This document shows, piece by piece, positions 2,011 to 17,608 of a DNA stretch of 64,000 bases. The stretch spans positions 1 through 64,000 of the forward strand of contig DASPSR010000045.1 of assembly GCA_035623825.1 (NCBI GenBank), read 5' to 3'. How positions within the stretch are numbered: position 1 is the first letter of the stretch; every line of letters begins with the position of its first letter. The DNA comes from Nitrospirota bacterium. Lineage in GTDB: Bacteria; Nitrospirota; UBA9217. Both the position numbers and the translations under genes were made by a program. Under the pieces are notes generated by a model, which saw nothing but the letters and a program-made list of their open reading frames with translations, did no database searches and was not told where the DNA came from.

Positions 2011-2159
2011 CACTACATTACCATGCAGCCACCGTTCCCGCGGTCAACGTGGACCGCAGAAGTGAACAAGATGATCAAGGTCATGGGCGCGCCGATCAAT
2101 GAAGAGGACGCGAAGCCATCATCGACTATCTTTCGACGAACTACGGCACGGGGAAGTGA
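2011..2159 (+). pseudogene. Remnant of SorB-like monoheme cytochrome c (C-terminal half, frameshifted)
   Basis: Reads YITMQPPFPRSTWTAEVNKMIKVMGAPINEEDAK, then after a 1-nt shift near 2115 IIDYLSTNYGTGK-stop; CxxCH and signal peptide absent. Confidence 0.6.
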
Positions 2160-2187
2160 CGCCAGAGCAGTCGCAAGGAGGCTGATC

Positions 2188-3246
2188 ATGAAAGACAGAG
2201 AGCGGATGCCGGCGAGCACAATCCCATGGCTTTTTCTTTCTTTCGCGCTTGTGCTCTTGCTGGCAGTCAGCGCTTTGGCCGGAGCAGAAGATAAGGAGCT
2301 CGTCACCAGGTCGAACCAGATCTTCGGCCCCTTGCCGCAGTCAATGCTCTCGGAGCAAAACCCGATTACCCCGTCTAAAGTGAAGCTCGGGAAAATGCTT
2401 TTTTACGAATCCCGGATTTCCGTCGATGGTACTGTGAGCTGCGCCAAATGTCACCCCATCAGCCTGTACGCGGCCGACGGGCTCAAGAAGGCAAGAGGCA
2501 ACAACTGCAAGGAAAACCCCCGCAATTCGCCCACGATACTGAACGCAGCGGCGCAGATTTCCGCTCACTGGATAGGCAACCGGACGGGCGTGGAGGACCA
2601 GGCAAAGCAATCCCTTGTAGGGCCGCCGTCCTTTGGCATGCCGTCCTACGAATCCGTGGAAAAGATCCTTGAGGGGATCAGGGGATACGTTATCCTGTTC
2701 CAGGAGGCTTTTCCGGAAGAGAAAGAACCGGTCAATGTGGATAACTTCGCCAAGGCGGTCAGCGCCTTTGAAAGGACCCTCATGACGCCGGCCCCATTTG
2801 ATGATTTCATGAAAGGAAACGTCGCGGCGCTGACCGAGCAGCAGAAGAGGGGACTGCAGACGCTTCTGGATACCGGGTGCATGACCTGCCATTTCAGCCC
2901 CTACCTGGGCGGACAGATGTACCAGAAGTTCGGAATACTTGAGCCTTACTGGAACTATACCAAGAGCGAAAAAGTCGACGATGGGCGTTTCCCAGTCACG
3001 AAGAACGAGGCCGACAAGTACGTCTTCAAGGTGCCGATACTCAGGAACGTGGCGATGACGTCGCCGTACTTTCATGACGGTTCCGTCGATAAGCTCGACC
3101 GGGCGATATGGATCATGGCAAAGATCCAGCTCGGGAAGGAGCTGTCGAAGCAGCAGGTAGAAGACATCGACGCGTTTTTGCATTCATTGACGGGCAAACT
3201 GTCCGATGACATAGTGACCGTGCCGGTTTTGCCGGCAATGGAATGA
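2188..3246 (+). CDS. Di-heme cytochrome c peroxidase (CcpA/MauG family)
   Basis: RBS AAGGAGG before ATG 2188, signal peptide, CAKCH and CMTCH, FKVPILRNVAMTSPYFHDGS. Confidence 0.9.
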   Translation: MKDRERMPASTIPWLFLSFALVLLLAVSALAGAEDKELVTRSNQIFGPLPQSMLSEQNPITPSKVKLGKMLFYESRISVDGTVSCAKCHPISLYAADGLKKARGNNCKENPRNSPTILNAAAQISAHWIGNRTGVEDQAKQSLVGPPSFGMPSYESVEKILEGIRGYVILFQEAFPEEKEPVNVDNFAKAVSAFERTLMTPAPFDDFMKGNVAALTEQQKRGLQTLLDTGCMTCHFSPYLGGQMYQKFGILEPYWNYTKSEKVDDGRFPVTKNEADKYVFKVPILRNVAMTSPYFHDGSVDKLDRAIWIMAKIQLGKELSKQQVEDIDAFLHSLTGKLSDDIVTVPVLPAME

Positions 3247-3292
3247 TAATGATTAATTCTGATCATATATTAATAAAGAAGGGAGATATTGT

Positions 3293-3625
3293 ATGAAAAA
3301 AGTTGTAGTCGTTTTAGCTTTCAGTGCAGCGATATCTTTCATTATGACATCTGCATCCCCCGTGGTGGCTGATTCAGCGAAGTCGGGAGAGGAACTGTTC
3401 AAGCAGAACTGCGCGGTGTGCCACGTCGATGGCGGCAATATCGTCAACCCGAAGAAAACGCTTCATAAAGCGGACCGCGAGGCCAATAATGTCAAGACGG
3501 TAAAGGATATCATAGGTAAAATGAGAAATCCTGGGCCCGGGATGATCAAATTTGACGAGAAGACCATCCCCGACAAGGAAGCAAAGGAGATAGCCGAGTA
3601 TATTTTAAAGACTTTCAATAAATAG
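3293..3625 (+). CDS. Class I monoheme cytochrome c, c6/PetJ-like
   Basis: Signal peptide, CAVCH, GGNIVNPKKTL, probable axial Met in GPGM. Confidence 0.85.
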   Translation: MKKVVVVLAFSAAISFIMTSASPVVADSAKSGEELFKQNCAVCHVDGGNIVNPKKTLHKADREANNVKTVKDIIGKMRNPGPGMIKFDEKTIPDKEAKEIAEYILKTFNK

Positions 3626-3785: not shown

Positions 3786-4859
3786 ATGCGTGATGACAGC
3801 GTGTATCAGAGTCTTGTCAAGCGCGGTGTGTCGCGGCGGGATTTCATGAAGTTCTGCACCGCCATGGCCGCAGCGCTGGCGCTGCCGGCATCGTATGCGA
3901 CAAAGATCGCCGCAGCGTTGGAGAAAGCTCAAAAACCGTATGTTGTATGGCTTGAATTCTCGGACTGTGCTGGCGATTCAGAGGCGACGCTCAGGGCGAC
4001 AAAGCCCACGATTGCCTCGCTCGTCCTCGATGTCATATCGCTCGAATATCACGAGACGATCATGACGCCCTCTGGAAAGGCTGCCGAGAAATCTCTGATG
4101 GACGTTGTCGATAAACAAAAAGGCAAATACATCGCTATCGTGGAAGGCGCGATTCCGATGAAGGAGAACGGTGTCTACTGTACCGTGAGCGGCAAGACGG
4201 CTGTCTCCACGGCCAAGCATGTGTGCGGTAATGCCATGGCTACCATAGCCGTAGGCTCGTGCGCAGCATGGGGCGGCGTTGCAAGCGCCTTCCCCAATCC
4301 GACAGGTTGCGTAGGCGTAAAAGATGCCGTAGCAGGCATCACCCTGGTGAATCTTCCCGGGTGCCCCCATAATGTCGAGAACCTCACTGCCACGATCGTA
4401 CACTTCCTGACCTTCAAGTCCCTCCCGCAGTTAGACAGCCACAATCGTCCGCTGTTTGCCTATGGCAAGAGGATCCATGACAACTGCGAGCGCCGCGCTC
4501 ACTTCGATGCCGGCCAGTTTGTGCGGAAGTGGGGCGATGAGGGTCATCGGCAGGGCTGGTGCCTGTACGAAATGGGCTGCAAAGGGCCGGAGGCGTATTT
4601 CAACTGTCCGACGGTCAAGTACAATGAAGGCACGAGCTGGCCTGTCCAGGCCGGCCACGGCTGCATAGCCTGCGCAGCCGATAACAACTGGGACACGATG
4701 TCGCCGATGTACAGGCGGCTGCCCACTGTTCCGGGGTTCGGAGTTGAGACAACGGCTGACAAGATCGGCGCCGGTCTCGCGGTAGCAACAGCAGTTGGTC
4801 TCGTGGCACACGGCATCGGAAGGGCCGCAAAGCCGAAAGATGAAAAAAAGCACGAATAG
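3786..4859 (+). CDS. [NiFe]-hydrogenase small subunit 1 (Tat-exported, membrane-anchored)
   Basis: SRRDFMK Tat motif, CAGD proximal motif, PGCP, HDNCERR/WCLYEMGCKGP distal cluster, SWP medial [3Fe-4S]-type, C-terminal TM helix. Confidence 0.95.
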   Translation: MRDDSVYQSLVKRGVSRRDFMKFCTAMAAALALPASYATKIAAALEKAQKPYVVWLEFSDCAGDSEATLRATKPTIASLVLDVISLEYHETIMTPSGKAAEKSLMDVVDKQKGKYIAIVEGAIPMKENGVYCTVSGKTAVSTAKHVCGNAMATIAVGSCAAWGGVASAFPNPTGCVGVKDAVAGITLVNLPGCPHNVENLTATIVHFLTFKSLPQLDSHNRPLFAYGKRIHDNCERRAHFDAGQFVRKWGDEGHRQGWCLYEMGCKGPEAYFNCPTVKYNEGTSWPVQAGHGCIACAADNNWDTMSPMYRRLPTVPGFGVETTADKIGAGLAVATAVGLVAHGIGRAAKPKDEKKHE

Positions 4860-4896
4860 CTTGATATTCATAAAATTTTACTAAGGAGGAGGAGCT

Positions 4897-6612
4897 ATGC
4901 CGAAGATCGCAATAGATCCTATTACCAGGATCGAAGGTCATCTGAGAATTGAAGCTCAGGTCGAAGGCGGCAAGGTGACGGACGCATGGTCGTCCAGCAC
5001 CATGTTCCGGGGCATTGAGATCATTGTCAAAGATCGTGATCCCCGCGACGCGTGGCTGTTTGTCCAACGTATTTGAGGGGTCTGAACGACGGTTCACGCC
5101 ACCAGCTCGGTTCGAGCTGTAGAAAACGCCTTAGGAATCGTAATACCGGACAACGCACGGATCATCAGGAACCTCATCTCCGGGATTCAGTATGTGCAGG
5201 ATCATGTAATACATTTCTATCACCTCCATGCCCTTGACTGGGTCGACGTCGTGAGCGCGCTCAAGGCGGACCCGGCAAAGACGTCGTCTCTGGCCATGTC
5301 AATATCTGACTGGCATAATTCCTCAACGACGTATTTCAAGGGCGTCCAGCAGAAGGTCAAAGCTCTCGTAGAGAGCGGCCAGCTCGGCATCTTTGCCAAC
5401 GGGTATTGGGGCCATCCGGCCTATAAACTGCCTCCCGAGGCGAACCTCATGGCCGTTGCCCACTATCTCGAGGCGCTTGACTGGCAGCGAGATGTCATCA
5501 GGATGCAGGCGCTCCTTGGCGCCAAGAACCCGCACGCCCAGACGTACCTGGTGGGCGGCGTAGCCATCCCTGTCGACCCCAACAGCCAGAATGCCTTGAA
5601 CGCGGGCAGTATTGCGTTCATGTCCGAAATCTCGAAGAAGGCATACGACTTCGTCGCGAAGGTGTACATTCCCGACCTGCTCGCAGTCGCCTCGTTCTAC
5701 AAGGACTGGGCGGCCTACGGCGCCGGCGTGGGCAACTTCCTTTCCTACGGTGAATTCCCTAATGACAATGCGTTGAATACCACGAACCTCTGGTTGCCGC
5801 GGGGCATCATCAAGAACAAGGACATAAGCAAGGTCCTTCCTGTCGACCAGGCAAAGGTCTCGGAGTATGTCAGCCATTCCTGGTATGATTACAGCGGTGG
5901 GGACGCGAAAGGAAAGCACCCGTGGGAAGGCGAAACGAACTTCAAGTACACAGGCCCTACTCCGCCCTTCGAGAACGGCTTTGTGAGCGACAAGCAGAAG
6001 TACTCCTGGGTCAAGGCGCCACGGTATGAAGATATGCCGATGGAGGTTGGCCCGCTCGCGAGGATGCTCGTGGCATACGTGTCGGGCCACAAGCGCGTAA
6101 AAGAAGTGGTGAACATGTGTCTGCAAAAGCTCGGCGTAGGCCCGGCCGCTCTCTTCTCGACCCTCGGCCGCGTCGCGGCACGGGGTATCGAGACGTTCGT
6201 CACTGCGGAGATGCTGCCCACCTGGATCGATCAGCTCGCGGCGAACATGGGCAAGGGCGACCTGCGCATCCACAACGGCGAGAAGTGGGATCCCGCTACG
6301 TGGCCCAAGGAAGCCAAGGGCTTCGGGTTCCATGAGGCGCCGCGCGGCAGCCTCTGCCACTGGATCCTCATCAAGGACGGCAAGATCGCAAATTACCAGG
6401 CCGTCGTTCCGGGCACCTGGAACGGCTCGCCGCGTGATGCGAAGGGGCAGCACGGCCCCTGGGAAGCAGCACTCGTCGGCACTCCGGTACATGACCCGAA
6501 CAAACCGATAGAGATCCTCCGGACGGTCCATTCATTCGACCCCTGCATGGCATGCGCCGTGCACGTGGTGGACCCGGAGGGCAAGGAAGTCACGAGGATC
6601 AAGATCGTCTAA
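4897..6612 (+). CDS. [NiFe]-hydrogenase large subunit 1 with two in-frame TGA (putative Sec60 and Sec63) in the L1 motif
   Basis: RBS AGGAGGAGG; MPKIAIDPITRIEGHLRIE...RDPRDAWLFVQRI*GV*TTVH is in frame with ORF 5194-6612, which ends HSFDPCMACAVH plus a 15-aa extension. Confidence 0.92.
5086..5125 (+). promoter_or_regulatory. Putative bacterial SECIS element
   Basis: Perfect stem CAGCTCG(5103-5109)/CGAGCTG(5113-5119) with G-initiated apical loop, about 24 and 33 nt after the two TGAs. Confidence 0.7.
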
Positions 6613-6627
6613 GAAAGGAGGTAGACC

Positions 6628-7293
6628 ATGCAGCCAAACAGGATTAGGGCGTATGTATGGGAATTCCCGGTCCGGTTCACCCACTGGATCAATGCCCTTT
6701 GCATCGTGATGTTCTGTATCACGGGCTTCTACATCGGGCGTCCGTTCATGCACGCCGTTTCATCTGAGCAGTACATCATGGGATGGATGCGGTTCCTCCA
6801 TTTCGCTTCGGGATACATATTCCTCCTGAGCATGATCATCAGGATCTACTGGATGTTTGCCGGCAACAAGTATGCGAGCTGGAGAGTGTTCATCCCCCTG
6901 ACCAGCAGGCAGTGGGAGGACATGATCGGCGGGCTGAAGTTCTATCTCTTCATGAAGAAGCAGCCGCCCTACGCGGCAGGGCATTCGGCCATGGCGTCGA
7001 TCACGTACCTCGGCGTGTTCATCCTGTTCCTCTTTGAGATCGCGTCTGGGTTCGCGCTCTATTCCCAGAGCCATTTAAAGAGCACGGTCCTGTGGCTTTG
7101 CGGCGGGTGGATGCTCAGCATCCTTCACGTGCAGACGGTCCGGCTGCTCCATCACATCGTCATGTGGCTCCTGATCGTCTTTACCGCCATCCATGTGTAT
7201 ATCGGGTGGTATCTTGACATCGCCGAGAAGAACGGAGTGATGGGCTCCATATTCGGCGGGTTCAAGTTCATTACGGGAAAGGAATGGGAATAA
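6628..7293 (+). CDS. Ni/Fe-hydrogenase b-type cytochrome subunit 1
   Basis: VWEFPVRFTHW, RFLHF, RLLHH, IHVY heme-ligand His; 4 TM; operon position. Confidence 0.93.
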   Translation: MQPNRIRAYVWEFPVRFTHWINALCIVMFCITGFYIGRPFMHAVSSEQYIMGWMRFLHFASGYIFLLSMIIRIYWMFAGNKYASWRVFIPLTSRQWEDMIGGLKFYLFMKKQPPYAAGHSAMASITYLGVFILFLFEIASGFALYSQSHLKSTVLWLCGGWMLSILHVQTVRLLHHIVMWLLIVFTAIHVYIGWYLDIAEKNGVMGSIFGGFKFITGKEWE

Positions 7294-7302
7294 AACAGTA
7301 TC

Positions 7303-7851
7303 GTGGGTGCTGATCAGAAGACATTTAGTCAAGACATGGTACGCCCGGAAGGTCACCGTGACTCCGGGCGTATCAGTGTTTTAGGCCTCGGCAACATTCT
7401 GCTCACCGATGAAGGCGTCGGGGTACACGCGGTAAACGCCATCAAGAAGAAGTATGCCTTTTCTCCCGAGATCGATATCATTGATGGCGGCACCATGGGT
7501 CTCGATCTGCTCCCCATCTTTCAAACGCAGGATAAGATCCTCATCGTTGACGCCGTCGACTTTAAAAAAGAGCCGGGTCATGTAGGCATCGTCGAAGGGA
7601 AAAACATCCCATCCGTTCTCAATACGAAGCTTTCTGTCCATCATATCGGGCTCTCTGACCTTCTTTTTACGGCAAAACTGACTCGCACCACGCCGCTGGA
7701 CGTCTACTTGGTCGGCATACAGCCGAAGTCATTCGATGTTGGCCTTGACATGACGGACGAGATCCGCACGCGGCTGGATGACATCATCGAGATCGCGTTA
7801 CGGAAACTCAAAGAATGGGATGTACAAATTAACATCAAGCCCCTGCCTTGA
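7303..7851 (+). CDS. Hydrogenase maturation endopeptidase 1 (HyaD/HybD family)
   Basis: GLGNILLTDEGVGV, DGGT, IVDAV, SVHHIGL. Confidence 0.93.
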   Translation: MGADQKTFSQDMVRPEGHRDSGRISVLGLGNILLTDEGVGVHAVNAIKKKYAFSPEIDIIDGGTMGLDLLPIFQTQDKILIVDAVDFKKEPGHVGIVEGKNIPSVLNTKLSVHHIGLSDLLFTAKLTRTTPLDVYLVGIQPKSFDVGLDMTDEIRTRLDDIIEIALRKLKEWDVQINIKPLP

Positions 7852-8344
7852 CGTGTCACGTCATCAGTATCCGCTCAACTTCAACGCTCATTAATTTACA
7901 CAAATCTTCCGCTCCTCCTCAAAAATTTTAGAAACAATCTATCAAATTTACAGATATTAGTCATAGGAATTCCCTATCGTTCATTAGAAAAATCATTTAT
8001 TAATTAAATACATAGAATATATTTTATTTCATCGCAGATTTGACAAATACGAAATTACCTGCTAATCTGAAATCGTACTTTACGCGGTGTGCTGTAATTG
8101 AACGCGCACGATCAAGGCAAGTCCTATTTCCCTTCTTTACATATTTAAATTGAGAGAATATTCTCGATTCCTTTTCAGAGTGATAGCTTTCTTGACTTAT
8201 TTTTTTTGCTCATTTCGGCGTAAGTAGGGACCGGTTTTACCACGGACATTGCCTTTTTGTGCGAAAGAGCTCTTTTTTCCAATCCTGCAGTATCACATTA
8301 CGGACAATTTTCATTTTTTAAAATACTACAAGGAGGATGCGCAA

Positions 8345-9454
8345 ATGAGTAAAAAGGAAGGTGCGAGTAAGCAGTTTCTTGACTCATTGGAGTTCCGTGG
8401 TATCAAACGCAGGGATTTTTTGAAGTTCTGCGGGGCAACTGCCGCCCTCATCGGACTCTCAGAATTTTACGTTCCCAAGATAGCCGCGGCGTTGGAAAAA
8501 GCCGCCAAAAGACAGCCGGTTGTATGGCTCAATTTTGCGTCTGATACGGGTTGTACCGAGGCCTTGATCAAGGCAACGTACCCCAGCGCCGCTGAGATCA
8601 TTCTCGATATCTTGAGCGTCGACTACAACGAAACGATCATGGCGGCCGCAGGGAAGCAGGCGGAGGAGATCCTTGACAAGTCTAAGAAAGCAGGGGGCTA
8701 TGTCCTTGTTGTTGAAGGCGGGATCCCGACCAAGAAAGGACACGGCATGATCGGGAACAAGGAGATGCTCGATGTCTTCAGAGAGTTTGCCGGTCCTGCC
8801 GTCGCGGTATTGGCGGTCGGCAGCTGTGCGACGACGGGAGGCGTTCCGGCGGCGAAACCGAACCCCTCGCAGATCATCGGCATCTCCGAGGCGCTCAAAA
8901 GGGTCGGCATTAATAAGCCGCTGATCAATCTCGACCTCTGTCCCGTGAACCCGCAATATCTCGTAGGCGTGGTGGTCAATTTCCTGCTCCTCGGAAAGCT
9001 CCCGGACCTCGACAGTGTCGGCAGACCGAAGATGTTCTACGGACAGACGATCCACGATAACTGCGAGCGCAGGGCGCACTTCGATGCCGGAAGGTTCGTA
9101 GAAAAGTTCGGCTCCAAGGAAGAGGCTCTCAACTATTGCCTCTACAAGATGGGCTGCAAAGGTCCGATGACCTATTCGGCTTGTTCAAAGATCCAGTATA
9201 ACAACCGAACAAGCTGGTGCATAAAGGCCGGAGGCCCCTGCATCGGTTGTGCCGAGCCCGGATGGACGGACAAGTTCGCCGGCTTCTATGAGAAACTTCC
9301 CGGCGTCAAGATCCCCGGGATCGGCGGCGTTGAAAAAGGCGCTGACACAATCGGTGCGGTTGCGGCAGCCGCGACAGCCGTGGGCATAGCGGTCCATGCC
9401 GCGGCAACGGCGGCGTCGGGCAGGACCAAAGAAGAAAAGGGAGGTGAAAAATAA
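8345..9454 (+). CDS. [NiFe]-hydrogenase small subunit 2 (Tat-exported)
   Basis: RBS AGGAGG before ATG 8345; KRRDFLK; DTGC proximal motif; SWC medial [4Fe-4S]-type; C-terminal TM. Confidence 0.95.
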   Translation: MSKKEGASKQFLDSLEFRGIKRRDFLKFCGATAALIGLSEFYVPKIAAALEKAAKRQPVVWLNFASDTGCTEALIKATYPSAAEIILDILSVDYNETIMAAAGKQAEEILDKSKKAGGYVLVVEGGIPTKKGHGMIGNKEMLDVFREFAGPAVAVLAVGSCATTGGVPAAKPNPSQIIGISEALKRVGINKPLINLDLCPVNPQYLVGVVVNFLLLGKLPDLDSVGRPKMFYGQTIHDNCERRAHFDAGRFVEKFGSKEEALNYCLYKMGCKGPMTYSACSKIQYNNRTSWCIKAGGPCIGCAEPGWTDKFAGFYEKLPGVKIPGIGGVEKGADTIGAVAAAATAVGIAVHAAATAASGRTKEEKGGEK

Positions 9455-11046
9455 TGGCCAGGATAACGATAGACCCATTTACGAGGATCGAAGGACATCT
9501 GAGGATCGACGTCGAGATCGAAGGCGGCAAGGTCAAGGATGCGTGGACGACAGGCACGCTGTTTAGGGGTTTTGAGATCATACTTCAGGGCAGGGATCCC
9601 AGAGATGCCTGGCATATTACCCAGCGCATCTGCGGCGTTTGTCCCACATCGCACGGACACACCTCGTCAATGAGCATGGATGACGCCTTCAAGGTAAGGC
9701 CGCCGGACAATGGCCGCATCCTCAGAAATATAATCGAGGGGGCCCAGTTCGTTCACTCCCATATTCTCTGGTTCTATCACCTGAATGCGCTGGATTATGT
9801 TGATGTTGTATCGGCACTGAAAGCCCAGCCGAAGGAGGCCTCGCTCAAGAAGGTCCATGCGAAGCTCAAGGCATTCGTCGAATCGGGGCAGCTCGGCCCC
9901 TTCGCCAATGCCTACTGGGGCCATCCCGCATACAAGCTGCCGCCGGATGTGAACCTCCTTGCAGTGGCACACTATCTCGAGGCACTCGAGATGCAGGCCA
10001 AGGCAGCTGAGGTGAGCGCCCTGTTCGGCGGCAGGATGCCGATGACCATGACGAGCCCTCCGGGCGGCGTAACGCATGTGCCGAGCGTCGATGACCTTAA
10101 AAACTATCTCTTCCGGATGAAAGAGCTTCAGGATTGGATTGATAACGTGTTCATTCCGGATGTCCTGGCCATCGCTCCGTTCTATCTCGACTGGGCAGCG
10201 GTAGGCAAGGGATTCGGGAACTTTCTTTCCTGGGGCGTGTTCGAGGATGCGTCCTTCGATCCCAAGAAACGGCTCCTGCCGAGAGGAGCAATATTCGCTT
10301 CGGATTTCCCGAAGGTCCACGATGCGAAGCCGGAGGACGTTACAGAGGACACGTCGCATGGCTGGTACAAGAGCGGCAAGCCGCTCAATCCGAGCGTGGG
10401 CGAGACGGAACCCGAATACACGGGCTACGACCCGAGCAAGAAATACACCTGGGCAAAGGCGCCTCGGCTCCAGGGCAAGCCCATGGAGGTCGGGGCCCTC
10501 GCCAGGATGCTCGTTGCCTATGCCTCCGGCCAGCCCACGGCCAAAAAGCTCATCGACAGCACGCTCACCGCTATCGGACATCCAGGACAGCCGCAGGTGC
10601 TCCTTGGCGTGATCGGAAGGATCGCCGGGCGGGCGCTCGAATGCAAGATGGTGGCGGATGCCATGTATCAATGGGGCCTCGACATCATCGAAAACATCAA
10701 GAAGGGGAATACGGCGGTGTACAATGAGTATAAGATCCCCGACAAGGCCCGCGGCATCGGACTTTGGGAAGCTCCGCGGGGCGCCTTGGGCCACTGGATC
10801 GACATAGAAGGCAAGAAGATAAAGAACTACCAGTGCGTGGTCCCGACTACGTGGAACGTCTGCCCCCGTGACGAGAGGGGGGTGCGTGGACCCATTGAAG
10901 AGGCCTTGATAGGGACCACGGTGGTGAATGCGGAGAAGCCGCTCGAGGTCATTCGTGTGGTTCACTCATTTGACCCCTGTCTTGCATGCACGGTGCATGT
11001 GATCCATCCCGAGTCTAACCGCATTATGGACTTCAAGGTCTGTTGA
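9454..11046 (+). CDS. [NiFe]-hydrogenase large subunit 2 (all-Cys; group 1a-like motifs)
   Basis: DPFTRIEGH, QRICGVCPTSH, HSFDPCLACTVH plus C-terminal extension. Confidence 0.96.
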   Translation: MARITIDPFTRIEGHLRIDVEIEGGKVKDAWTTGTLFRGFEIILQGRDPRDAWHITQRICGVCPTSHGHTSSMSMDDAFKVRPPDNGRILRNIIEGAQFVHSHILWFYHLNALDYVDVVSALKAQPKEASLKKVHAKLKAFVESGQLGPFANAYWGHPAYKLPPDVNLLAVAHYLEALEMQAKAAEVSALFGGRMPMTMTSPPGGVTHVPSVDDLKNYLFRMKELQDWIDNVFIPDVLAIAPFYLDWAAVGKGFGNFLSWGVFEDASFDPKKRLLPRGAIFASDFPKVHDAKPEDVTEDTSHGWYKSGKPLNPSVGETEPEYTGYDPSKKYTWAKAPRLQGKPMEVGALARMLVAYASGQPTAKKLIDSTLTAIGHPGQPQVLLGVIGRIAGRALECKMVADAMYQWGLDIIENIKKGNTAVYNEYKIPDKARGIGLWEAPRGALGHWIDIEGKKIKNYQCVVPTTWNVCPRDERGVRGPIEEALIGTTVVNAEKPLEVIRVVHSFDPCLACTVHVIHPESNRIMDFKVC

Positions 11047-11057
11047 GGGAGGATGCG

Positions 11058-11705
11058 ATGGAAAAAGACATGATACGAGAATGGAGTACGGGATACATTA
11101 TCGAGCACTGGGTCCGCGTTATTTCCATAGCCGTCCTGACCTTTACGGGCTTCTACATCCATTGGCCCTTCATAGCCGGCGGCACGGATAGCTTTATCAT
11201 GGCATGGAACCGTTTCTTTCACTTCATGGCGGCCTATGCCCTGATCCTCGGCCTTGTGGTGAGGGTCTACATGGCGTTCCGGTCGACGTTCGACAGCGAC
11301 TGGCAGGACTTCGGTCTTGTCCGGAACATTAAGAACCTTCCGGACATTCTGGGCTACTACCTGTTCATCAAGGGCTCGCACAAAGAGTACCGGAAGTATA
11401 ACCCCCTGCAGGCACTGGCGTACCTCGCCATCGGTCTTGTGATCATCTTCGAGGCGCTGAGCGGCGCGGCCATTTACCATGGATACTTGTTCGGGTTCAT
11501 TCCCTGTCCCGACAGCTTCAGGTGGGTGCTTAACCTGCTGGGCGGAGAAGGCGTCACACGGATGATACACTTCTTCGTGATGTGGTTCTTTATCATCTTT
11601 GTGTTGATCCATGTCTACATGGCCTTCATGATAGGTTGGGTGAACAAGGACGGAACCTTTACTTCGATTTTTACGGGCTATAAGCTCAAGAAGCACCACG
11701 AATGA
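11058..11705 (+). CDS. Ni/Fe-hydrogenase b-type cytochrome subunit 2
   Basis: EHW, RFFHF, YNPLQ, RMIHF, IHVY; RBS GGGAGG before ATG 11058. Confidence 0.92.
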   Translation: MEKDMIREWSTGYIIEHWVRVISIAVLTFTGFYIHWPFIAGGTDSFIMAWNRFFHFMAAYALILGLVVRVYMAFRSTFDSDWQDFGLVRNIKNLPDILGYYLFIKGSHKEYRKYNPLQALAYLAIGLVIIFEALSGAAIYHGYLFGFIPCPDSFRWVLNLLGGEGVTRMIHFFVMWFFIIFVLIHVYMAFMIGWVNKDGTFTSIFTGYKLKKHHE

Positions 11706-12208
11706 TGTCAGATCGTCAGATGAGGGGAGACGCTCAGGCGTCTCCCCAATCGATCTTGATTCTCGGTGTCGGAAATCTCTTGCTCGGGGACGACGGTTTC
11801 GGCGTTCATCTCATCAATGCGCTTAAAGATATCCCGTTTCCCCCCAATGTGCATCTTCTTGAGGCTGGTACGGTAAGCCACCAACTGATCCCCCTGTTCC
11901 GGGAGATCGAACATCTCATCGTTCTTGACGTCGTGGAAGCCGGCGATATCCCCGGCTCCATCTTCCGCTTTTCTCCCGACGACATGCAGTTTCCGACAGA
12001 GCAGAAAGCATCCCTGCACCAGATAAGTCTTATCGATGTCCTTCGCATGGCGGAGTTGACGGGCGGCAAGCCAAAGACCGTCATACTTGCGGTGCAACCC
12101 AAGGATGTCTCTTCCTGGTCTTTAGATCTGAGCGACGAGCTCGAGGCAATCATTCCCAAAGTCAAGGAGCTTGTCGTTGAGGAACTGAAAAAAATCAAGG
12201 CATTATGA
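11702..12208 (+). CDS. Hydrogenase maturation endopeptidase 2
   Basis: GVGNLLLGDDGFGV, SLHQ motif. Confidence 0.92.
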   Translation: MMSDRQMRGDAQASPQSILILGVGNLLLGDDGFGVHLINALKDIPFPPNVHLLEAGTVSHQLIPLFREIEHLIVLDVVEAGDIPGSIFRFSPDDMQFPTEQKASLHQISLIDVLRMAELTGGKPKTVILAVQPKDVSSWSLDLSDELEAIIPKVKELVVEELKKIKAL

Positions 12209-12716: not shown

Positions 12717-13916
12717 ATGCTGATACGCAAGGCATTTCAGTACAGGATCCGGTTCTCCAAACCGGGCGAGGACGCAGCACTTACTCGGTTCGCCGGATGC
12801 TGCCGCTTCGTCTGGAACAAGGCCCTCTCCCTGCAGAAGGAGCGGCTGGACAGCAAGAAGCGCATCCTTTCCTATCCGGAGATGGCAGACCTTCTCCTTG
12901 TCTGGAAAAAGGAGCATCCGTTCCTCACGGAGGCCCCCTCGCAGGCGCTGCAGCAGCGGCTCATGGATTTAGACAAGGCGCTCCATGAAGCGTTCGACCC
13001 TCATAACCCCAAGCGGTTCCCCAGGTTCAAGAAGAAGCACAAGTGCCGCGAGTCCTTCAGGTACCCGCAGGGGTTCGCGGTGAAGAAGAACCGGGTCTAT
13101 CTCCCCAAATTCGGCTGGGCCAGGTTCTATAAAAGCCGCGAGATATCCGGCAACCCCAAAAACGTCACAGTATCGAGGAAAGGGGGCCATTGGTTCTTCT
13201 CCGTGCAGACGGAGATGGAAGTTGGCGGGCCGGTGCACCCATCCAAAACACAGATCGGCGTGGACTTCGGTGTCAAAAGACTCATTACTCTTTCCGACGG
13301 TATGGGGTTTCTTCCGATTAATGCATTAAAGAAGCACCTTAAGGGCCTGCGCGATGCGCAGAGAAGGCTCGCACGAATGGTAAAGAGGTCTAACAACTGG
13401 AAAAAGCAGAAAAGAACGATCCGGGATATTCATATCAGGATTGCCGATATCCGCTCAGACTGGCTGCACAGGGTATCACACTATTTGAGCAAAAACCACG
13501 CTTTGATCGTGCTTGAGGACCTTGGCATCAAAGACATGAGCGCATCGGCAAAGGGGACGATTGAAAATCCCGGAAGGAACGTTAGGCAGAAGGCCGGTCT
13601 CAACCGCGCCATTCTCGACCAGGGGTGGGGAGAACTCATGCGCCAGATACAGTACAAGCAGGAATGGCTGGGCGGCATGACGCTCTTCGTCGACCCCGCC
13701 CATACGAGCCAGGAATGCGCCGTATGCGGCCATGTTTCGCCTGAGAACAGGCAGTCTCGAGATTTGTTCAACTGCGTGCAATGCGGCCATGTTGAGAACG
13801 CCGACGAGAATGCCGCGAAAGTCGTGCTGTCAAGGGTGGGTCACACCCGGGTGATCTGTGGATCGAACGGTGCTGTAATGCCGTCGGAAGCAGAAACCGA
13901 AACAGTGCTGTCGTAA
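12717..13916 (+). CDS. tnpB: RNA-guided endonuclease TnpB
   Basis: N-terminal HTH, RuvC-I GVDFG, RuvC-II LEDL, Zn finger TSQECAVCG...CVQCG, RuvC-III NADENAA. Confidence 0.95.
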   Translation: MLIRKAFQYRIRFSKPGEDAALTRFAGCCRFVWNKALSLQKERLDSKKRILSYPEMADLLLVWKKEHPFLTEAPSQALQQRLMDLDKALHEAFDPHNPKRFPRFKKKHKCRESFRYPQGFAVKKNRVYLPKFGWARFYKSREISGNPKNVTVSRKGGHWFFSVQTEMEVGGPVHPSKTQIGVDFGVKRLITLSDGMGFLPINALKKHLKGLRDAQRRLARMVKRSNNWKKQKRTIRDIHIRIADIRSDWLHRVSHYLSKNHALIVLEDLGIKDMSASAKGTIENPGRNVRQKAGLNRAILDQGWGELMRQIQYKQEWLGGMTLFVDPAHTSQECAVCGHVSPENRQSRDLFNCVQCGHVENADENAAKVVLSRVGHTRVICGSNGAVMPSEAETETVLS

Positions 13917-14067: not shown

Positions 14068-14607
14068 ATGTGCCTTGCCATCCCTTCACTGATTGTAAGC
14101 ATCGATGACCTTATCGCAACGATTGACGTGTACGGCGCACGACGACAGGTGAGCCTCATGCTCCTGCCTGAGGCTCCGCGGATAGGGGATTATGTCCTTG
14201 TCCACGCCGGATTTGCGATCCAGAAGATAGCCAAGGAGACCGTTGAATCAGGTGAGATCATGCACGAAGCATCCATAGCCTTAAGCATCCTCGATATCGT
14301 CCAGACCAAATGCCAGGAGGAAGGGTGCCGCTCGGTGGATTCCGTCAAGGTCAGGATCGGAAAGGCGGCGGGGATCCTTCCCGATTCCCTTATATTCGCT
14401 TTTGACGCGGCGAAAGACAACACGGTTGCGAAGAACGCAACGCTCACCATCGAGACTGTGCCGGTCGGCGGTACCTGCCGTGACTGCAAGAAAGAGTTCA
14501 CGGTCGAGGACGCGCAGTACGTATTCTCTTGCCCTCACTGCGGCTCCAAATCCTTCGAGATCACCAGTGGCCGCGAAATGGATATCGTGGACATGGAGAT
14601 CAACTAA
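14068..14607 (+). CDS. hypC/hypA: HypC-HypA fusion protein
   Basis: MCLAIP...GDYVLVHAGFAI (HypC) continues in frame into MHEASI...CRDC...CPHC...GRE (HypA) from codon 65 (ATG 14260). Confidence 0.9.
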   Translation: MCLAIPSLIVSIDDLIATIDVYGARRQVSLMLLPEAPRIGDYVLVHAGFAIQKIAKETVESGEIMHEASIALSILDIVQTKCQEEGCRSVDSVKVRIGKAAGILPDSLIFAFDAAKDNTVAKNATLTIETVPVGGTCRDCKKEFTVEDAQYVFSCPHCGSKSFEITSGREMDIVDMEIN

Positions 14608-15251
14608 TGAAGGTCAAGGTGGTCACCCGCATCCTCGAAGCAAATGACCGCATCGCCGAGGAGAACCGGAAACGGTTCCAGGACGCGGGAGTGTATGTCG
14701 TGAACCTCATGGGAGCGCCCGGGGCGGGGAAGACCTCGCTGCTCGAAAGGACGATCCGCGAGCTCAAGCCGCATCTAGAGATCGGGGTGATCGAAGGCGA
14801 CATCGTAGGGAGCGACGACGCCGAACGCATAGGAGCTCTCGACGTTCCCGTGGTGCAGATCAACACCGGAGGGGCCTGCCACCTCGATGCGAATATGATC
14901 AACGAGGTGCTGGACGAACTGCCGCTCAAGGAATTGGACATGCTCATCATCGAGAACGTCGGCAATCTCGTCTGCCCCGCGGAGTTCAAGGTCGGCGAAG
15001 ACATGAAGATGATGGTCCTGAGCATCGCCGAGGGGCATGACAAGCCGCTCAAATACCCCCTGATGTTCCAGGAATCATCGGCCCTGGTCCTCAATAAGAT
15101 CGATCTCCTCCCGTACATGAATACGGACATGAACAAGGTAAGGAACGATTCCCTCGCACTCAATCCGAAACTGAAGATTTTCGAGGTCTCCTGCGCGAAC
15201 GGCGCGGGAATCGATGCTTGGGCTCAATGGTTGAGCGCGCTCACATCATAG
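14607..15251 (+). CDS. hypB: Hydrogenase nickel-insertion GTPase
   Basis: GAPGAGKT, CHLDA, ENVGNLVCP, KYPLMF, NKID. Confidence 0.96.
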   Translation: MKVKVVTRILEANDRIAEENRKRFQDAGVYVVNLMGAPGAGKTSLLERTIRELKPHLEIGVIEGDIVGSDDAERIGALDVPVVQINTGGACHLDANMINEVLDELPLKELDMLIIENVGNLVCPAEFKVGEDMKMMVLSIAEGHDKPLKYPLMFQESSALVLNKIDLLPYMNTDMNKVRNDSLALNPKLKIFEVSCANGAGIDAWAQWLSALTS

Positions 15252-17608
15252 TCAAAGGCGTCGTGCAAGGCGTCGGCTTCAGGCCCTATGTGTTCACCCT
15301 TGCCGAGCGCCTCGGCCTCAAAGGCTATGTCTCGAACACCGCCGACGGAGTGGTCATCGAAGCCGAAGGGCGCTCCCTCCCTGAGTTTATCAGTCGTCTT
15401 CCGAAAGAAGCCCCTCCGCTGTCCCAGATCTCCAGCGTCTCCGTGACTTCACTCCCCCTCTTAGGCTACAGGGACTTCACCATACAAAAAAGCGTTGATC
15501 AGAAGGGTAGCTTGCCGTTCACCCTGGTCTCGCCCGATGTCTCGGTCTGCGACGACTGTGCGCGGGAACTGCTCGACCCTAGGGACAGGAGATATCTTTA
15601 TTCATTTATAAACTGTACGAACTGCGGTCCCCGGTACTCGATAACCAGGCACGTCCCGTATGACAGGCCGAACACCACCATGGCCGATTTTGCCATGTGC
15701 CCCGAATGTCTCAACGAATATGAAAACCCGAGGGACAGGAGGTTCCACGCCCAACCGAACGCATGCCCGAAGTGCGGCCCGGATGTCGAGTTTCGAGTGC
15801 GAAAGAAAGAGTCCGGGCCTACGGGCAGTGAAGCCATTCGCGAGGCGATCCGGGCACTGCAGGGCGGCAGCATTCTTGCGGTGAAGGGTCTCGGCGGGTT
15901 CCATATCGCCTGTGACGCGTCGAATGACGCCGCGGTGGCGCGGCTTCGCCTGAACAAGAGGAAGAGCAACAAGCCGTTTGCCGTCATGGTCCCGAGCGTT
16001 GAAGCGGCACGGCGGTTTTGCATGGTTGCCGATGCCGAGAAGGTCCTCCTCGAATCCAACAAGCGGCCTGTCGTTCTCCTCGAGAAGACAGCGGACCATC
16101 TCTCCGCTTCGGTTTCGCCGAATAATAAATATGTAGGATGCATGCTCCCGTACACCCCGCTTCACTATTTGCTGTTTTTCCATCCGCTGGACGGAAACGA
16201 AAAGAGAACGGCCCCGCATTTCACCGCACTCGTGATGACGAGCGGAAATTTGTCGGAAGAACCGATCGTGCGGGACAATAGTGAGGCGCAGGGCAAGCTG
16301 TCCGGGATAGTCGACGGCTTTCTCCTTCACAACAGGGACATCTTCATGCGGGTCGATGACTCGGTGATGCGGGTGCAGAGCAAAGGCGGCCCCGGGCCCC
16401 GGACACCCAACTCCGAACCGGTTTTCCTCCGCCGCTCCCGCGGATATGCTCCCGATCCCATTGCGCTCCACGATGAAGGCCCGGAAGTCCTGGGCTGCGG
16501 CGCGGACCTCAAAAACACCTTCACCGTCACCAAGGGAAAGTTCGCCATACCGAGCCAGCACATCGGCGACATGGAAAATTACGAGACGGTGAGATTCTTT
16601 GAAGAAAGCCTTGCGAACATCAAGGCTGTGTACCGGGTAAACCCTGTAGCCATTGCGCACGACCTCCATCCGGGATATCTTTCGACACGGTGGGCGATTG
16701 ACCAGGGGGCAGGGGGTCGAAGTCAAGAGTCAGGGCGGGGCTTTAAGACCTATGCCATCCAGCACCACTATGCCCATATTGGTTCGGTGATGGCCGAGCA
16801 TGGCCTGGACCGGAAGGTAATCGGCGTTGCATTTGACGGAACGGGATACGGAACGGACGGGAACCTCTGGGGCGCGGAATTTTTGATCGCCGATACCGAC
16901 GGATTTGAACGGGCGGGGCAATTCCAGTACATCCCGCTGCCCGGCGGCGAGGCTGCCATCCGGGAGCCGTGGCGGACGGCAGTAAGCTACGTTCTCGAGG
17001 CGGCGGGCAGCGAGGCGCCGGAGTATCTCGAAAAAACGGGGTTCCAGGAGAGATACGGGAAAGCGTCCATGGAGCAGCTCGTCAAGGTCGCCCGCGCACG
17101 GGAGCTTTCTCCCCTCTCATCAGGCGCAGGCAGGCTGTTCGATGCGGTTTCCGCCCTCCTCGGGCTGTGCAGTGTGAACACCTTTGAGGGAGAGGCGGCC
17201 ATGGCACTGGAGGCCTGCGCCCAAGGTCGCGGCGACGACCAGTATCCGGTTGAGTTTGAGAAGGAAAACGGTTATACTGTCGTGGATTTTTCTCGTACCA
17301 TCACCGGGGTCATAGAGGACAGGATAAAAGGACAGAGCGCAGGCTTTATCTCCACGGCATTTCATAATACCGTCGCTTCGGTCATAGAGACGGTTGCTGC
17401 TTCACTGAGCAAGGACCTGGGGATCATGGATGTGGCCTTGAGCGGGGGAACGTTCCAGAATCTGTATCTTCTGAACAGGACGGAACGGCTGCTCAGAGCT
17501 CGCGGGATGAACGTGTTCGTCAATCATAAAATGCCCGCTAACGACGGGGGCATATCCCTCGGCCAGGCGTACATCCTGCGGGAGAGGCTCAAGAAGGGGA
17601 CCTTATGA
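15227..17608 (+). CDS. hypF: Carbamoyltransferase
   Basis: GVVQGVGFRP, two Zn fingers, RRFHAQPNAC, QHHYAH, PANDGGISLGQ. Confidence 0.96.
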   Translation: MVERAHIIVKGVVQGVGFRPYVFTLAERLGLKGYVSNTADGVVIEAEGRSLPEFISRLPKEAPPLSQISSVSVTSLPLLGYRDFTIQKSVDQKGSLPFTLVSPDVSVCDDCARELLDPRDRRYLYSFINCTNCGPRYSITRHVPYDRPNTTMADFAMCPECLNEYENPRDRRFHAQPNACPKCGPDVEFRVRKKESGPTGSEAIREAIRALQGGSILAVKGLGGFHIACDASNDAAVARLRLNKRKSNKPFAVMVPSVEAARRFCMVADAEKVLLESNKRPVVLLEKTADHLSASVSPNNKYVGCMLPYTPLHYLLFFHPLDGNEKRTAPHFTALVMTSGNLSEEPIVRDNSEAQGKLSGIVDGFLLHNRDIFMRVDDSVMRVQSKGGPGPRTPNSEPVFLRRSRGYAPDPIALHDEGPEVLGCGADLKNTFTVTKGKFAIPSQHIGDMENYETVRFFEESLANIKAVYRVNPVAIAHDLHPGYLSTRWAIDQGAGGRSQESGRGFKTYAIQHHYAHIGSVMAEHGLDRKVIGVAFDGTGYGTDGNLWGAEFLIADTDGFERAGQFQYIPLPGGEAAIREPWRTAVSYVLEAAGSEAPEYLEKTGFQERYGKASMEQLVKVARARELSPLSSGAGRLFDAVSALLGLCSVNTFEGEAAMALEACAQGRGDDQYPVEFEKENGYTVVDFSRTITGVIEDRIKGQSAGFISTAFHNTVASVIETVAASLSKDLGIMDVALSGGTFQNLYLLNRTERLLRARGMNVFVNHKMPANDGGISLGQAYILRERLKKGTL

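Follow-up and report, generated by a model that had tools for sequence, protein, structure and literature searches.

The window analysed here is a stretch of 64,000 nucleotides from a Nitrospirota bacterium (GTDB lineage UBA9217; assembly GCA_035623825.1, contig DASPSR010000045.1, positions 1 to 64,000). On its plus strand, positions 3786-7851 hold a four-gene operon built like that of a Group 1 uptake [NiFe]-hydrogenase, periplasmic and anchored in the membrane. The large-subunit gene of this operon (4897-6612) contains two in-frame TGA codons at the positions of the two cysteines (Cys) of the N-terminal nickel-binding motif L1, and the enzyme probably carries selenocysteine (Sec, U) there. 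The operon opens with a hydrogenase small subunit of 357 amino acids (3786-4859; PF01058, PF14720; TIGR00391 hydA, 446.8 bits against a cut-off of 179.5), with a twin-arginine translocation (Tat) signal at residues 15-33 (TIGR01409, 25.1 bits, cut-off 16.7) and a long C-terminal tail; it aligns with small subunits in the PDB up to residue 354. Behind the large subunit lie a b-type cytochrome membrane subunit (6628-7293; PF01292; TIGR02125, 166.2 bits, cut-off 121.5) and a HyaD/HybD-type maturation endopeptidase (7303-7851; PF01750; TIGR00140, 154.6 bits, cut-off 151.8), both on the plus strand. A Tat-exported small subunit, a cytochrome b and a C-terminal endopeptidase within one operon form the hallmark of Group 1 uptake enzymes. 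A first-pass annotation, made from the letters alone, had described the operon as otherwise intact, and the four family-matched genes bear this out.

The large subunit was translated with translation table 11 as the baseline and TGA read as U, and this translation is called the readthrough protein below. Read in this way, 4897-6612 (plus strand) is a single frame of 571 codons that ends in TAA and encodes a hydrogenase large subunit, as supported by Pfam, PDB alignment and orthologues. The only departures from table 11 are U60 (5074-5076) and U63 (5083-5085), in the context QRIUGVUTTVH; no other stop or frameshift occurs within the 571 codons. Direct reading also agrees with the start that had been proposed, ATG 4897, which is preceded by a strong Shine-Dalgarno-like sequence (AAGGAGGAGGAG, 4883-4894, plus strand), with 2 nt between its end and the ATG. 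An open reading frame of 472 amino acids that starts at GTG 5194 shares the frame of this gene and is its tail, as had been noted before. GTG 5194 was rejected as the true start, since L1 would be lost and the region upstream of it is conserved in frame.

The readthrough protein matches PF00374 with 792.5 bits (cut-off 25.8) over the complete model (1-508 of 508; residues 38-556). PDB chain 3myr_B, which we take to be the Allochromatium vinosum enzyme, aligns with residues 3-556 (723 bits), and both U residues stand opposite the cysteines of its RICGVCT. L1 thus reads RI-TGA-GV-TGA, in register with the RICGVC of PDB and genomic homologues, and the claim that the two TGAs fall exactly on the L1 cysteines is confirmed by translation and alignment. 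TGA codon 60 (5074-5076, plus strand) occupies the first Cys position of L1 (RxCGxC), that of a terminal nickel ligand, and TGA codon 63 (5083-5085, plus strand) the second, that of a ligand bridging nickel and iron. The C-terminal motif L2 is normal, again as first described. It reads DPCMACAVH (6538-6564, plus strand; C550, C553, H556), and both cysteines in its gac ccc tgc atg gca tgc are encoded by TGC (6544 and 6553). The family pattern of two motifs, L1 RxCGxC and L2 DPCxxC...H, would be incomplete unless the UGAs specify Sec or Cys. Fifteen residues follow His556 (6565-6609, plus strand), the aligned His at which the PDB chains stop. From what is known of the family, this tail is presumably cut off by the endopeptidase of the operon.

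Assignment to Group 1 does not depend on the operon architecture alone. The best 40 PDB matches, all of at least 560 bits, were named by their depositors as periplasmic, membrane-bound or uptake [NiFe] hydrogenases, and in our own reading of these names they belong to Group 1; the groups of Escherichia coli Hyd-1 and Hyd-2 are as given in the available text of PMC8020662. NuoD-type models reach at most 32 bits against the readthrough protein, and this does not place it in Group 4. None of the NCBIfam large-subunit models scored over its cut-off, so no equivalog name can be assigned. The closest relatives with ordinary cysteines come from Geobacter, Acidobacteriota and Sysuimicrobiota. Group 1f hydrogenases have been reported in genomes of Acidobacteria and Sysuimicrobiota (PMC5900883 and PMC11604079, as far as their available text goes), possibly the same genes as those of the present relatives. 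The first-pass annotation had called the enzyme 1c/1f-like; subgroup 1f or 1e may be expected.

The letters at the two TGAs are reproduced independently. Contigs from other DNA runs were counted if they extended more than 31 letters to either side of both TGAs, and two of them span the site with zero differences (X3 record 7, 4984-5700; X4 record 8, 4700-5126). Run X2 was not counted, as its overlaps at the UGAs have fewer than 31 letters on one side. The check for read errors that had been proposed earlier is in this way answered by contigs of other assemblies showing the same letters. Contigs of the metatranscriptome run X8 lie on 5433-5700 only; this leaves the UGAs outside, and they have no bearing on transcription or readthrough of the site. 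TGA is an ordinary stop elsewhere, as had been stated from the window. It ends 709 of the 1561 open frames of at least 300 codons in the genome, being the commonest stop among long frames, and it closes the neighbouring genes for the protease (7849-7851) and for a second large subunit (11044-11046). The genetic code is for this reason taken as standard, and genome-wide reassignment of TGA was rejected. Together with the conservation, selection and hairpin described below, this means that the double-TGA gene is neither a sequencing or assembly error nor a pseudogene.

Conservation of both TGAs was followed in three sets of genomes. Among the 41 nearest genomes, seven hold an orthologue of 80-100% identity with TGA at the same two codons. 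Five others hold a paralogous type of 54-55% identity in which the second codon alone is TGA; two copies of that type have Cys at both positions. In an even sample of the phylum, the gene with both TGAs (here called UxxU, after the residues at the two L1 positions) is found in 38 of the 301 genomes, with TGA at exactly codons 60 and 63, positions that were verified in all 38. L2 is CxxC in every one of these copies in which it is readable; the copy in genome G007 is frameshifted near its 3' end, and L2 was not found there. Seven further genomes of the sample carry a CxxU copy of 69-73% identity, also with verified positions, and a clade of 51-55% identity contributes 21 genomes with one TGA, of which five were verified as CxxU.

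The third set came from a scan in which each bacterial and archaeal species was represented by one genome, and the best 80 of 594 confirmed relatives were kept. These 80 loci divide into 31 UxxU, four CxxU, 45 CxxC and zero UxxC. By the titles of the records, in which the labels of metagenome-assembled genomes (MAGs) are those of their submitters, the UxxU loci belong to Nitrospirota (19), Chloroflexota (7), Methylomirabilota (1) and other or no phylum (4). Most of the UxxU loci are MAGs labelled Nitrospirota or Thermodesulfovibrionales, those of Chloroflexota are Anaerolineae and Thermoflexus, and the one of Methylomirabilota is from Methylomirabilia. Cys stands at both positions in all 45 CxxC loci, encoded by TGC or TGT in the 37 with codons printed. 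Codon 63 is TGA in all UxxU and CxxU relatives, and codon 60, in those CxxU and CxxC relatives whose codons were inspected, is TGC or TGT. L2 is again CxxC in all UxxU loci of the best 80 that have it readable. The homologues with TGA at one or both positions that the first-pass annotation proposed to look for were found in all three sets.

The pattern of substitution gives the same picture. Compared with congeners, codons 1-59 differ at a proportion of 0.47 of synonymous sites (pS) and 0.022 of nonsynonymous sites (pN), which corresponds to a ratio of nonsynonymous to synonymous rates (dN/dS) of about 0.03; the value is as low as that of codons 64-140 (0.05). Comparison with UxxU copies further away finds synonymous sites at saturation (pS 0.7-0.95), with pN at only 0.05-0.19. 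The codons upstream of the first TGA are, by this measure, under strong purifying selection. Since selection on them equals that on the downstream codons, ribosomes would be expected to traverse both UGAs into one protein.

Trees were computed with FastTree for 96 large subunits and with IQ-TREE (quick, LG+G4) for a subsample of 55 rows. The larger tree omits 11 of the 15 copies of a 530-residue paralogue, the remaining four serving as outgroup, as well as L026, L045 and L109, whose L2 is unreadable. UxxU copies occupy at least four places: the main Nitrospirota clade; a clade of Anaerolineae, whose sister is an Anaerolineales copy of Cys type; a single Chloroflexota copy beside Cys types of Roseiflexus and Chloroflexales; and the copy of Methylomirabilia, next to a CxxU sister. 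Well-supported branches require at least seven label changes involving UxxU in one tree and at least six in the other, with root and direction not established. In three genomes of one genus (G174, G198 and G225; loci L186-L188) a CxxU copy of this hydrogenase stands beside one free of TGA, at 68-71% identity to the query, possibly a Sec/Cys paralogue pair.

A candidate selenocysteine insertion sequence (SECIS) follows the two codons. The hairpin CAGCUCG-GUU-CGAGCUG (5103-5119, plus strand) starts 17 nt past UGA2 (codon 63) and 26 nt past UGA1 (codon 60), and its local fold has -10.1 kcal/mol. For comparison, 78 nt around the motif were aligned for all 47 TGA-bearing sequences (38 UxxU and 9 CxxU) and for 47 relatives of Cys type, the hairpin falling in alignment columns 36-52. 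In the TGA set 85.9% of stem cells are paired, and four of the six stem pairs show changes on both sides. Its covariation score, with two helices tested jointly, is 0.134 against a shuffled mean of 0.068; none of 500 shuffles scored as high, a result that is overstated in independence and p-value because the sequences are related. In the Cys set, 57.4% of stem cells are paired and the score is indistinguishable from that of shuffles. The compensatory changes seen in the alignment include AGCUC/GAGCU, UGCUC/GAGCA, GCUUC/GAAGC, GCCUC/GAGGC and UGCGC/GCGCA. Most of the unpaired stem cells of the TGA set are explained by a second register with a one-base bulge.

Folding energies separate the two sets. 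When a segment of 23 nt is folded alone, all 47 TGA-bearing sequences give -6.6 to -12.9 kcal/mol (mean -9.4), against a mean of -4.8 for the Cys set. A G at the first or second loop position is the criterion for a bacterial SECIS in the available text of PMC13582414; a hairpin of -6 kcal/mol or lower with such a G is present in 47/47 Sec-type but only 5/47 Cys-type sequences. In sister copies of UxxU and CxxU type the hairpin is the same or nearly so (e.g., L072/L080 and L087/L094), and for this reason no extra element for UGA1 is evident. Counted from the U of UGA2, the loop begins at +28. This is close to the other predicted selenoprotein genes of the same genome, in which the loops of downstream hairpins begin +22 to +27 from the UGA (+27 in the FdhA gene and +22 in the formate-dehydrogenase-type gene on contig C60).

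A second, short hairpin encloses UGA2 (UGAAC-GACG-GUUCA, 5083-5096, plus strand), and its role is uncertain. In 46 distinct Sec-type sequences 95.2% of its cells are paired, with four of the five pairs invariant; at the free position, the third base of Val, U stands in 36/47 Sec-type and 20/47 Cys-type sequences. The invariant pairs use codon positions 1 and 2 of UGA-Thr-Thr-Val-His, which are fixed by the amino acids, and the structure was accordingly given no weight. As a second SECIS for UGA1 it was set aside, four of its five pairs being codon-fixed and the hairpin being equally present in CxxU copies.

Beyond the window, the genome encodes other selenoproteins. Its own assembly (G000) is 89.65% complete in 67 contigs and contains selD (C48:65582-66493; 375.7 bits, cut-off 125), with the motif SHGAGUACK and the UGA at the usual Sec/Cys position. 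Three formate-dehydrogenase-type genes (C39:37092-40241, C22:13498-14232 and C60:4807-5547), comprising a full-length FdhA (1394 bits, over its cut-off) and two further fdh-type genes, have one in-frame TGA apiece. In five relatives with the same hydrogenase, selA scores over its cut-off in four, selB in all five, and a canonical tRNA-Sec was found in four; one congener (G002) has selA, selB and selC together on one contig (C81). The closed genome G036, of 2.4 Mb, combines the hydrogenase gene with a complete sel set. In congener G001 (10 contigs, estimated 77% complete), selA is split into four pieces and interrupted by internal TAA and TGA stops (C10:284212-285600), breaks that more likely reflect indel errors of long reads than loss of the gene.

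Taken together, it is likely that the operon specifies a Group 1 uptake hydrogenase whose large subunit carries Sec60 and Sec63, both UGAs being decoded by SelB through one hairpin; the earlier interpretation of two Sec residues in L1 is thus supported at the level of sequence analysis. SelB loaded with Sec-tRNA(Sec) would bind the hairpin at 5103-5119, with a G-U in its apical loop, and deliver Sec co-translationally at both UGAs; the insertion of Sec rather than another residue at both sites, and the service of both by a single hairpin, are the steps that we infer. In the mature subunit, after removal of the tail, nickel would be held by Se60 as a terminal and Se63 as an iron-bridging ligand, with Cys550 (terminal) and Cys553 (bridging) completing the ligation by two selenolates and two thiolates. 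The roles of the L1 and L2 positions follow the available text of PMC13582414 and PMC8020662. The enzyme would oxidise H2 for the quinone pool, with electrons expected, from knowledge of the family, to pass from the small subunit to cytochrome b and on to quinone. The wider reading joins a natural Ni(Se2S2) site to a widespread Group 1 clade, a repeated origin or exchange, and one SECIS for both UGAs, and we favour it with somewhat more reserve. About one in eight sampled Nitrospirota species would then possess the trait, which would have arisen or been exchanged repeatedly with the copies of Chloroflexota and Methylomirabilota.

Several observations weigh against this interpretation. In the own assembly, PF03841 has no match and TIGR00475 yields nothing over its cut-off; ARAGORN lists 39 tRNAs, none of them for Sec, and RF01852 gives nothing over 47 bits. 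Queries with the sel regions of G002 (same genus) and G007 (same family) in blastn found no selA or selB there either, matching only two unrelated flanking stretches. The search for the Sec machinery that was suggested in the first-pass annotation has therefore succeeded for selD and the three formate-dehydrogenase-type genes and failed for selA, selB and tRNA-Sec. At 89.65% completeness this gap may well reflect genes that were not assembled rather than absent ones. A search of Rfam with 4990-5200 at an E-value threshold of 10 returned zero family matches, and the kinship of the hairpin sequences tempers the covariation result. The loop starts at +37 from UGA1, 9 nt beyond the other selenoprotein genes of this genome, so that efficient insertion of Sec at codon 60 is not self-evident. 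A distance of 16-37 nt between UGA and loop is stated for bacterial SECIS elements, and spacing in E. coli is tightly constrained. Finally, the case for a double-Sec enzyme is built wholly on comparison of sequences.

The main rival is mixed decoding, in which UGA63 would be read as Sec through the hairpin and UGA60 wholly or partly as Cys, by a SelB-dependent Cys-tRNA(UCA) (tRNA-ReC) or a near-cognate tRNA-Cys, so that the product would effectively be a CxxU enzyme. The additional 9 nt between UGA60 and the hairpin would be accounted for in this way. The repeated occurrence of CxxU and UxxU sisters in the trees, with the same or nearly the same hairpin, indicates that position 60 toggles easily. 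In G007 (6% estimated contamination) a second tRNA(UCA) of Sec-like long form, with discriminator U instead of G, lies on a contig of only 9.4 kb (C13:3951-4041, minus strand; L140 997-1091). It is a possible tRNA-ReC, a candidate for inserting Cys at one UGA in some hosts, and would then speak against Sec at both positions there. According to the available text of PMC13582414, tRNA-ReC is enriched in Group 4 UXXU genomes, a limitation stated by its authors. However, a second tRNA(UCA) was seen only in G007 among the five UxxU genomes searched with RF01852: the second hit over the gathering score in G036 is a tRNA-Ser(tga), G001 and G002 have none, and in G016 nothing passes that score. The own, incomplete assembly yielded no tRNA with anticodon UCA. 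Moreover, TGA at codon 60 has been kept in 38/301 genomes despite saturated synonymous sites, which is hard to reconcile with a Cys that TGC would supply without the price of a stop codon. Mixed decoding is, on balance, unlikely.

Far less probable is an inactivated gene, in which a pair of nonsense mutations, or an error of sequencing or assembly, would have struck a decaying large-subunit gene and the tandem Cys-type hydrogenase (8249-12208) would do the work instead. Such a view could draw on the complete second operon that directly follows and on the failure to find selA, selB and selC in the own assembly. It is opposed by independent contigs with identical letters, 571 codons free of any other stop or frameshift, retention of both TGAs in 38/301 genomes and in several phyla, dN/dS of about 0.03 before the TGAs, and a covarying hairpin specific to the TGA-bearing copies. 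Equally implausible is a reading of UGA as a standard amino acid (Trp or Gly), or of TGA as a sense codon in the code of the organism. Nothing specific points to it; it is formally conceivable for any in-frame TGA. TGA is the commonest stop of long frames (709/1561) and ends neighbouring genes, and both positions align solely with Cys in the TGA-free homologues. To our knowledge of the family, neither Trp nor Gly is capable of ligating nickel. Decoding of both UGAs as Sec thus stays the preferred explanation.

The surroundings of the operon offer further observations. Directly behind it lies a second complete operon (8249-12208) with small subunit, large subunit, cytochrome b and protease, all with ordinary cysteines; its large subunit has 530 amino acids and is about 52% identical to the Sec-type one. 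The tandem order in which the Sec-type operon precedes the Cys-type one is kept in G002, G003 and G007. The Cys-type operon could be a selenium-independent backup, like Sec/Cys isoenzyme pairs, yet the two belong to different subtypes. Further downstream follow an IS605 OrfB/TnpB-like gene (12717-13916; PF01385, PF07282, PF12323) and, past it, hypC/A, hypB and hypF at 14068-17608. Immediately upstream, on the same strand, 2023-3625 encodes a di-haem cytochrome c peroxidase (PF03150) and a small c-type cytochrome, which may link the Sec-type operon to defence against peroxide or oxygen.

The small subunit has a peculiarity of its own. Its residues 61-64 (3966-3977) are C-A-G-D, in place of the C-x-G-C of the Desulfovibrio vulgaris Miyazaki and Hyd-2 chains, so that a cluster cysteine, presumably a ligand of the proximal cluster, is replaced by Asp. 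Proximal clusters ligated by Asp occur in other hydrogenase groups. CxGD or CxGN is found throughout the clade, including the Cys-type copies of Geobacter and Roseiflexus, and Anaerolineae copies retain CxGC; the Asp is for these reasons not tied to the Sec trait.

If the proposed decoding is correct, it has consequences for both recoding and catalysis. SelB-dependent recoding would allow more freedom in spacing and re-loading than would follow from the E. coli model, and two UGAs 6 nt apart with one hairpin would form a compact natural test case for the spacing of bacterial Sec insertion. Selenium would be catalytic or protective at nickel-ligand positions beyond the classical one. Among [NiFe] hydrogenases, those of Group 1 lend themselves best to crystallography and protein-film electrochemistry, and a natural enzyme with two Sec in L1 would allow comparison with engineered single Hyd-1 variants and with classical L2-Sec enzymes, resolving the role of selenium for each ligand position. 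The series CxxC, CxxU and UxxU within one clade offers a clean system for the evolution of the Cys-to-Sec transition. A double-TGA hydrogenase is, besides, common in one phylum and present in others. As gene callers stop at the first TGA, leaving here a fragment of 472 amino acids, such hydrogenases are likely annotated as truncated or without L1. H2 oxidation may consequently be under-called in MAGs of Thermodesulfovibrionales type and of Anaerolineae from peat, groundwater and hot springs.

Among known systems, the classical Group 1a [NiFeSe] hydrogenases (Desulfomicrobium baculatum and the HysAB of Desulfovibrio vulgaris Hildenborough; 1cc1 and 2wpn, among others) are likewise periplasmic Group 1 enzymes with a UGA-encoded Sec as a nickel ligand. 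They have one Sec, in place of the first L2 cysteine (PMC13582414 and PMC8020662, in their available text). The classical motif is DPUxxC, whereas L2 of the present enzyme is DPCMAC with TGC at 6544-6546, which sets it apart from that type. NiFeSe chains of the PDB match residues 177-569 only, with 325-345 bits as against 723 bits for the best [NiFe] chain. The HysA model NF045518 (422.6 bits, cut-off 780) and NF033181 (568.9 bits, cut-off 600) both remain below their thresholds. The Cys-type copies of Geobacter, Acidobacteriota and Chloroflexota are 67-71% identical and have the motif RxCGVCTTVH; these relatives, like 3myr_B and the whole Geobacter/Acidobacteriota/Roseiflexus clade, differ by Cys at both L1 positions and by having no conserved hairpin.

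Sec at these same two L1 positions has been placed by engineering in another membrane-bound Group 1 enzyme, E. coli Hyd-1 (C76U and C79U; Evans et al., PNAS 2021, PMC8020662). In the available text of that study, each of the four single Cys-to-Sec replacements still oxidised H2 in film electrochemistry, and C76U and C79U showed a lower apparent KM for H2 and an activation enthalpy raised by about 13 and 10 kJ/mol. Those variants are single substitutions in an O2-tolerant group 1d enzyme, with no double L1 variant in the part of the study available; the double occurrence described here is natural and conserved. A natural Sec at the bridging position is older knowledge, as Baltazar et al. (2011), according to the available text of PMC13582414, gave two Group 1 sequences in which the N-terminal motif is CXXU. 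These, and the CxxU copies found here, share the Sec at the bridging position, and the present enzyme has an additional one at the first, terminal position of L1.

The closest parallel is found in Group 4. The available text of Takano et al. (Front Microbiol, September 2026; PMC13582414) describes 47 Group 4 sequences with CXXU, UXXC or UXXU and terms the last two "previously unrecognized". Several features agree: both Cys of the N-terminal motif are replaced by UGA and the C-terminal CxxC is kept, CXXU relatives occur within the same clades, and a downstream stem-loop has G at loop position 1 or 2. One predicted SECIS is proposed in silico for both UGAs, similar hairpins accompany UXXU and CXXU, and the carriers are mostly MAGs in which annotation misses the gene. 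The Group 4 enzymes differ in being energy-converting, cytoplasm-facing multisubunit complexes, whereas the present one belongs to Group 1, is Tat-exported and has a cytochrome b; UXXC, with four cases in their set, has none among the best 80 of 594 loci here. Groups 1-3 were excluded from their data set by HydDB, and Nitrospirota has zero occurrences in the text available. In the available text of two reviews of prokaryotic selenoproteomes (2022 and 2026), hydrogenase subunits appear only as UxxC or CxxU, with UxxU given for other families. Our full-text literature search, with subscription papers and supplements outside its scope, found no Group 1 UXXU hydrogenase reported. The novelty assumed in the first-pass annotation must accordingly be narrowed, in that N-terminal CXXU (2011) and Group 4 UXXU (2026) precede it, as far as the accessible text goes, while UXXU in Group 1 was not found in print. 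The Group 1 case counts as new because the UXXU found in print is confined to Group 4. The concept itself is no longer unprecedented, and the present gene is most aptly seen as a new form, in Group 1, of the N-terminal-Sec [NiFeSe] hydrogenases described not long ago.

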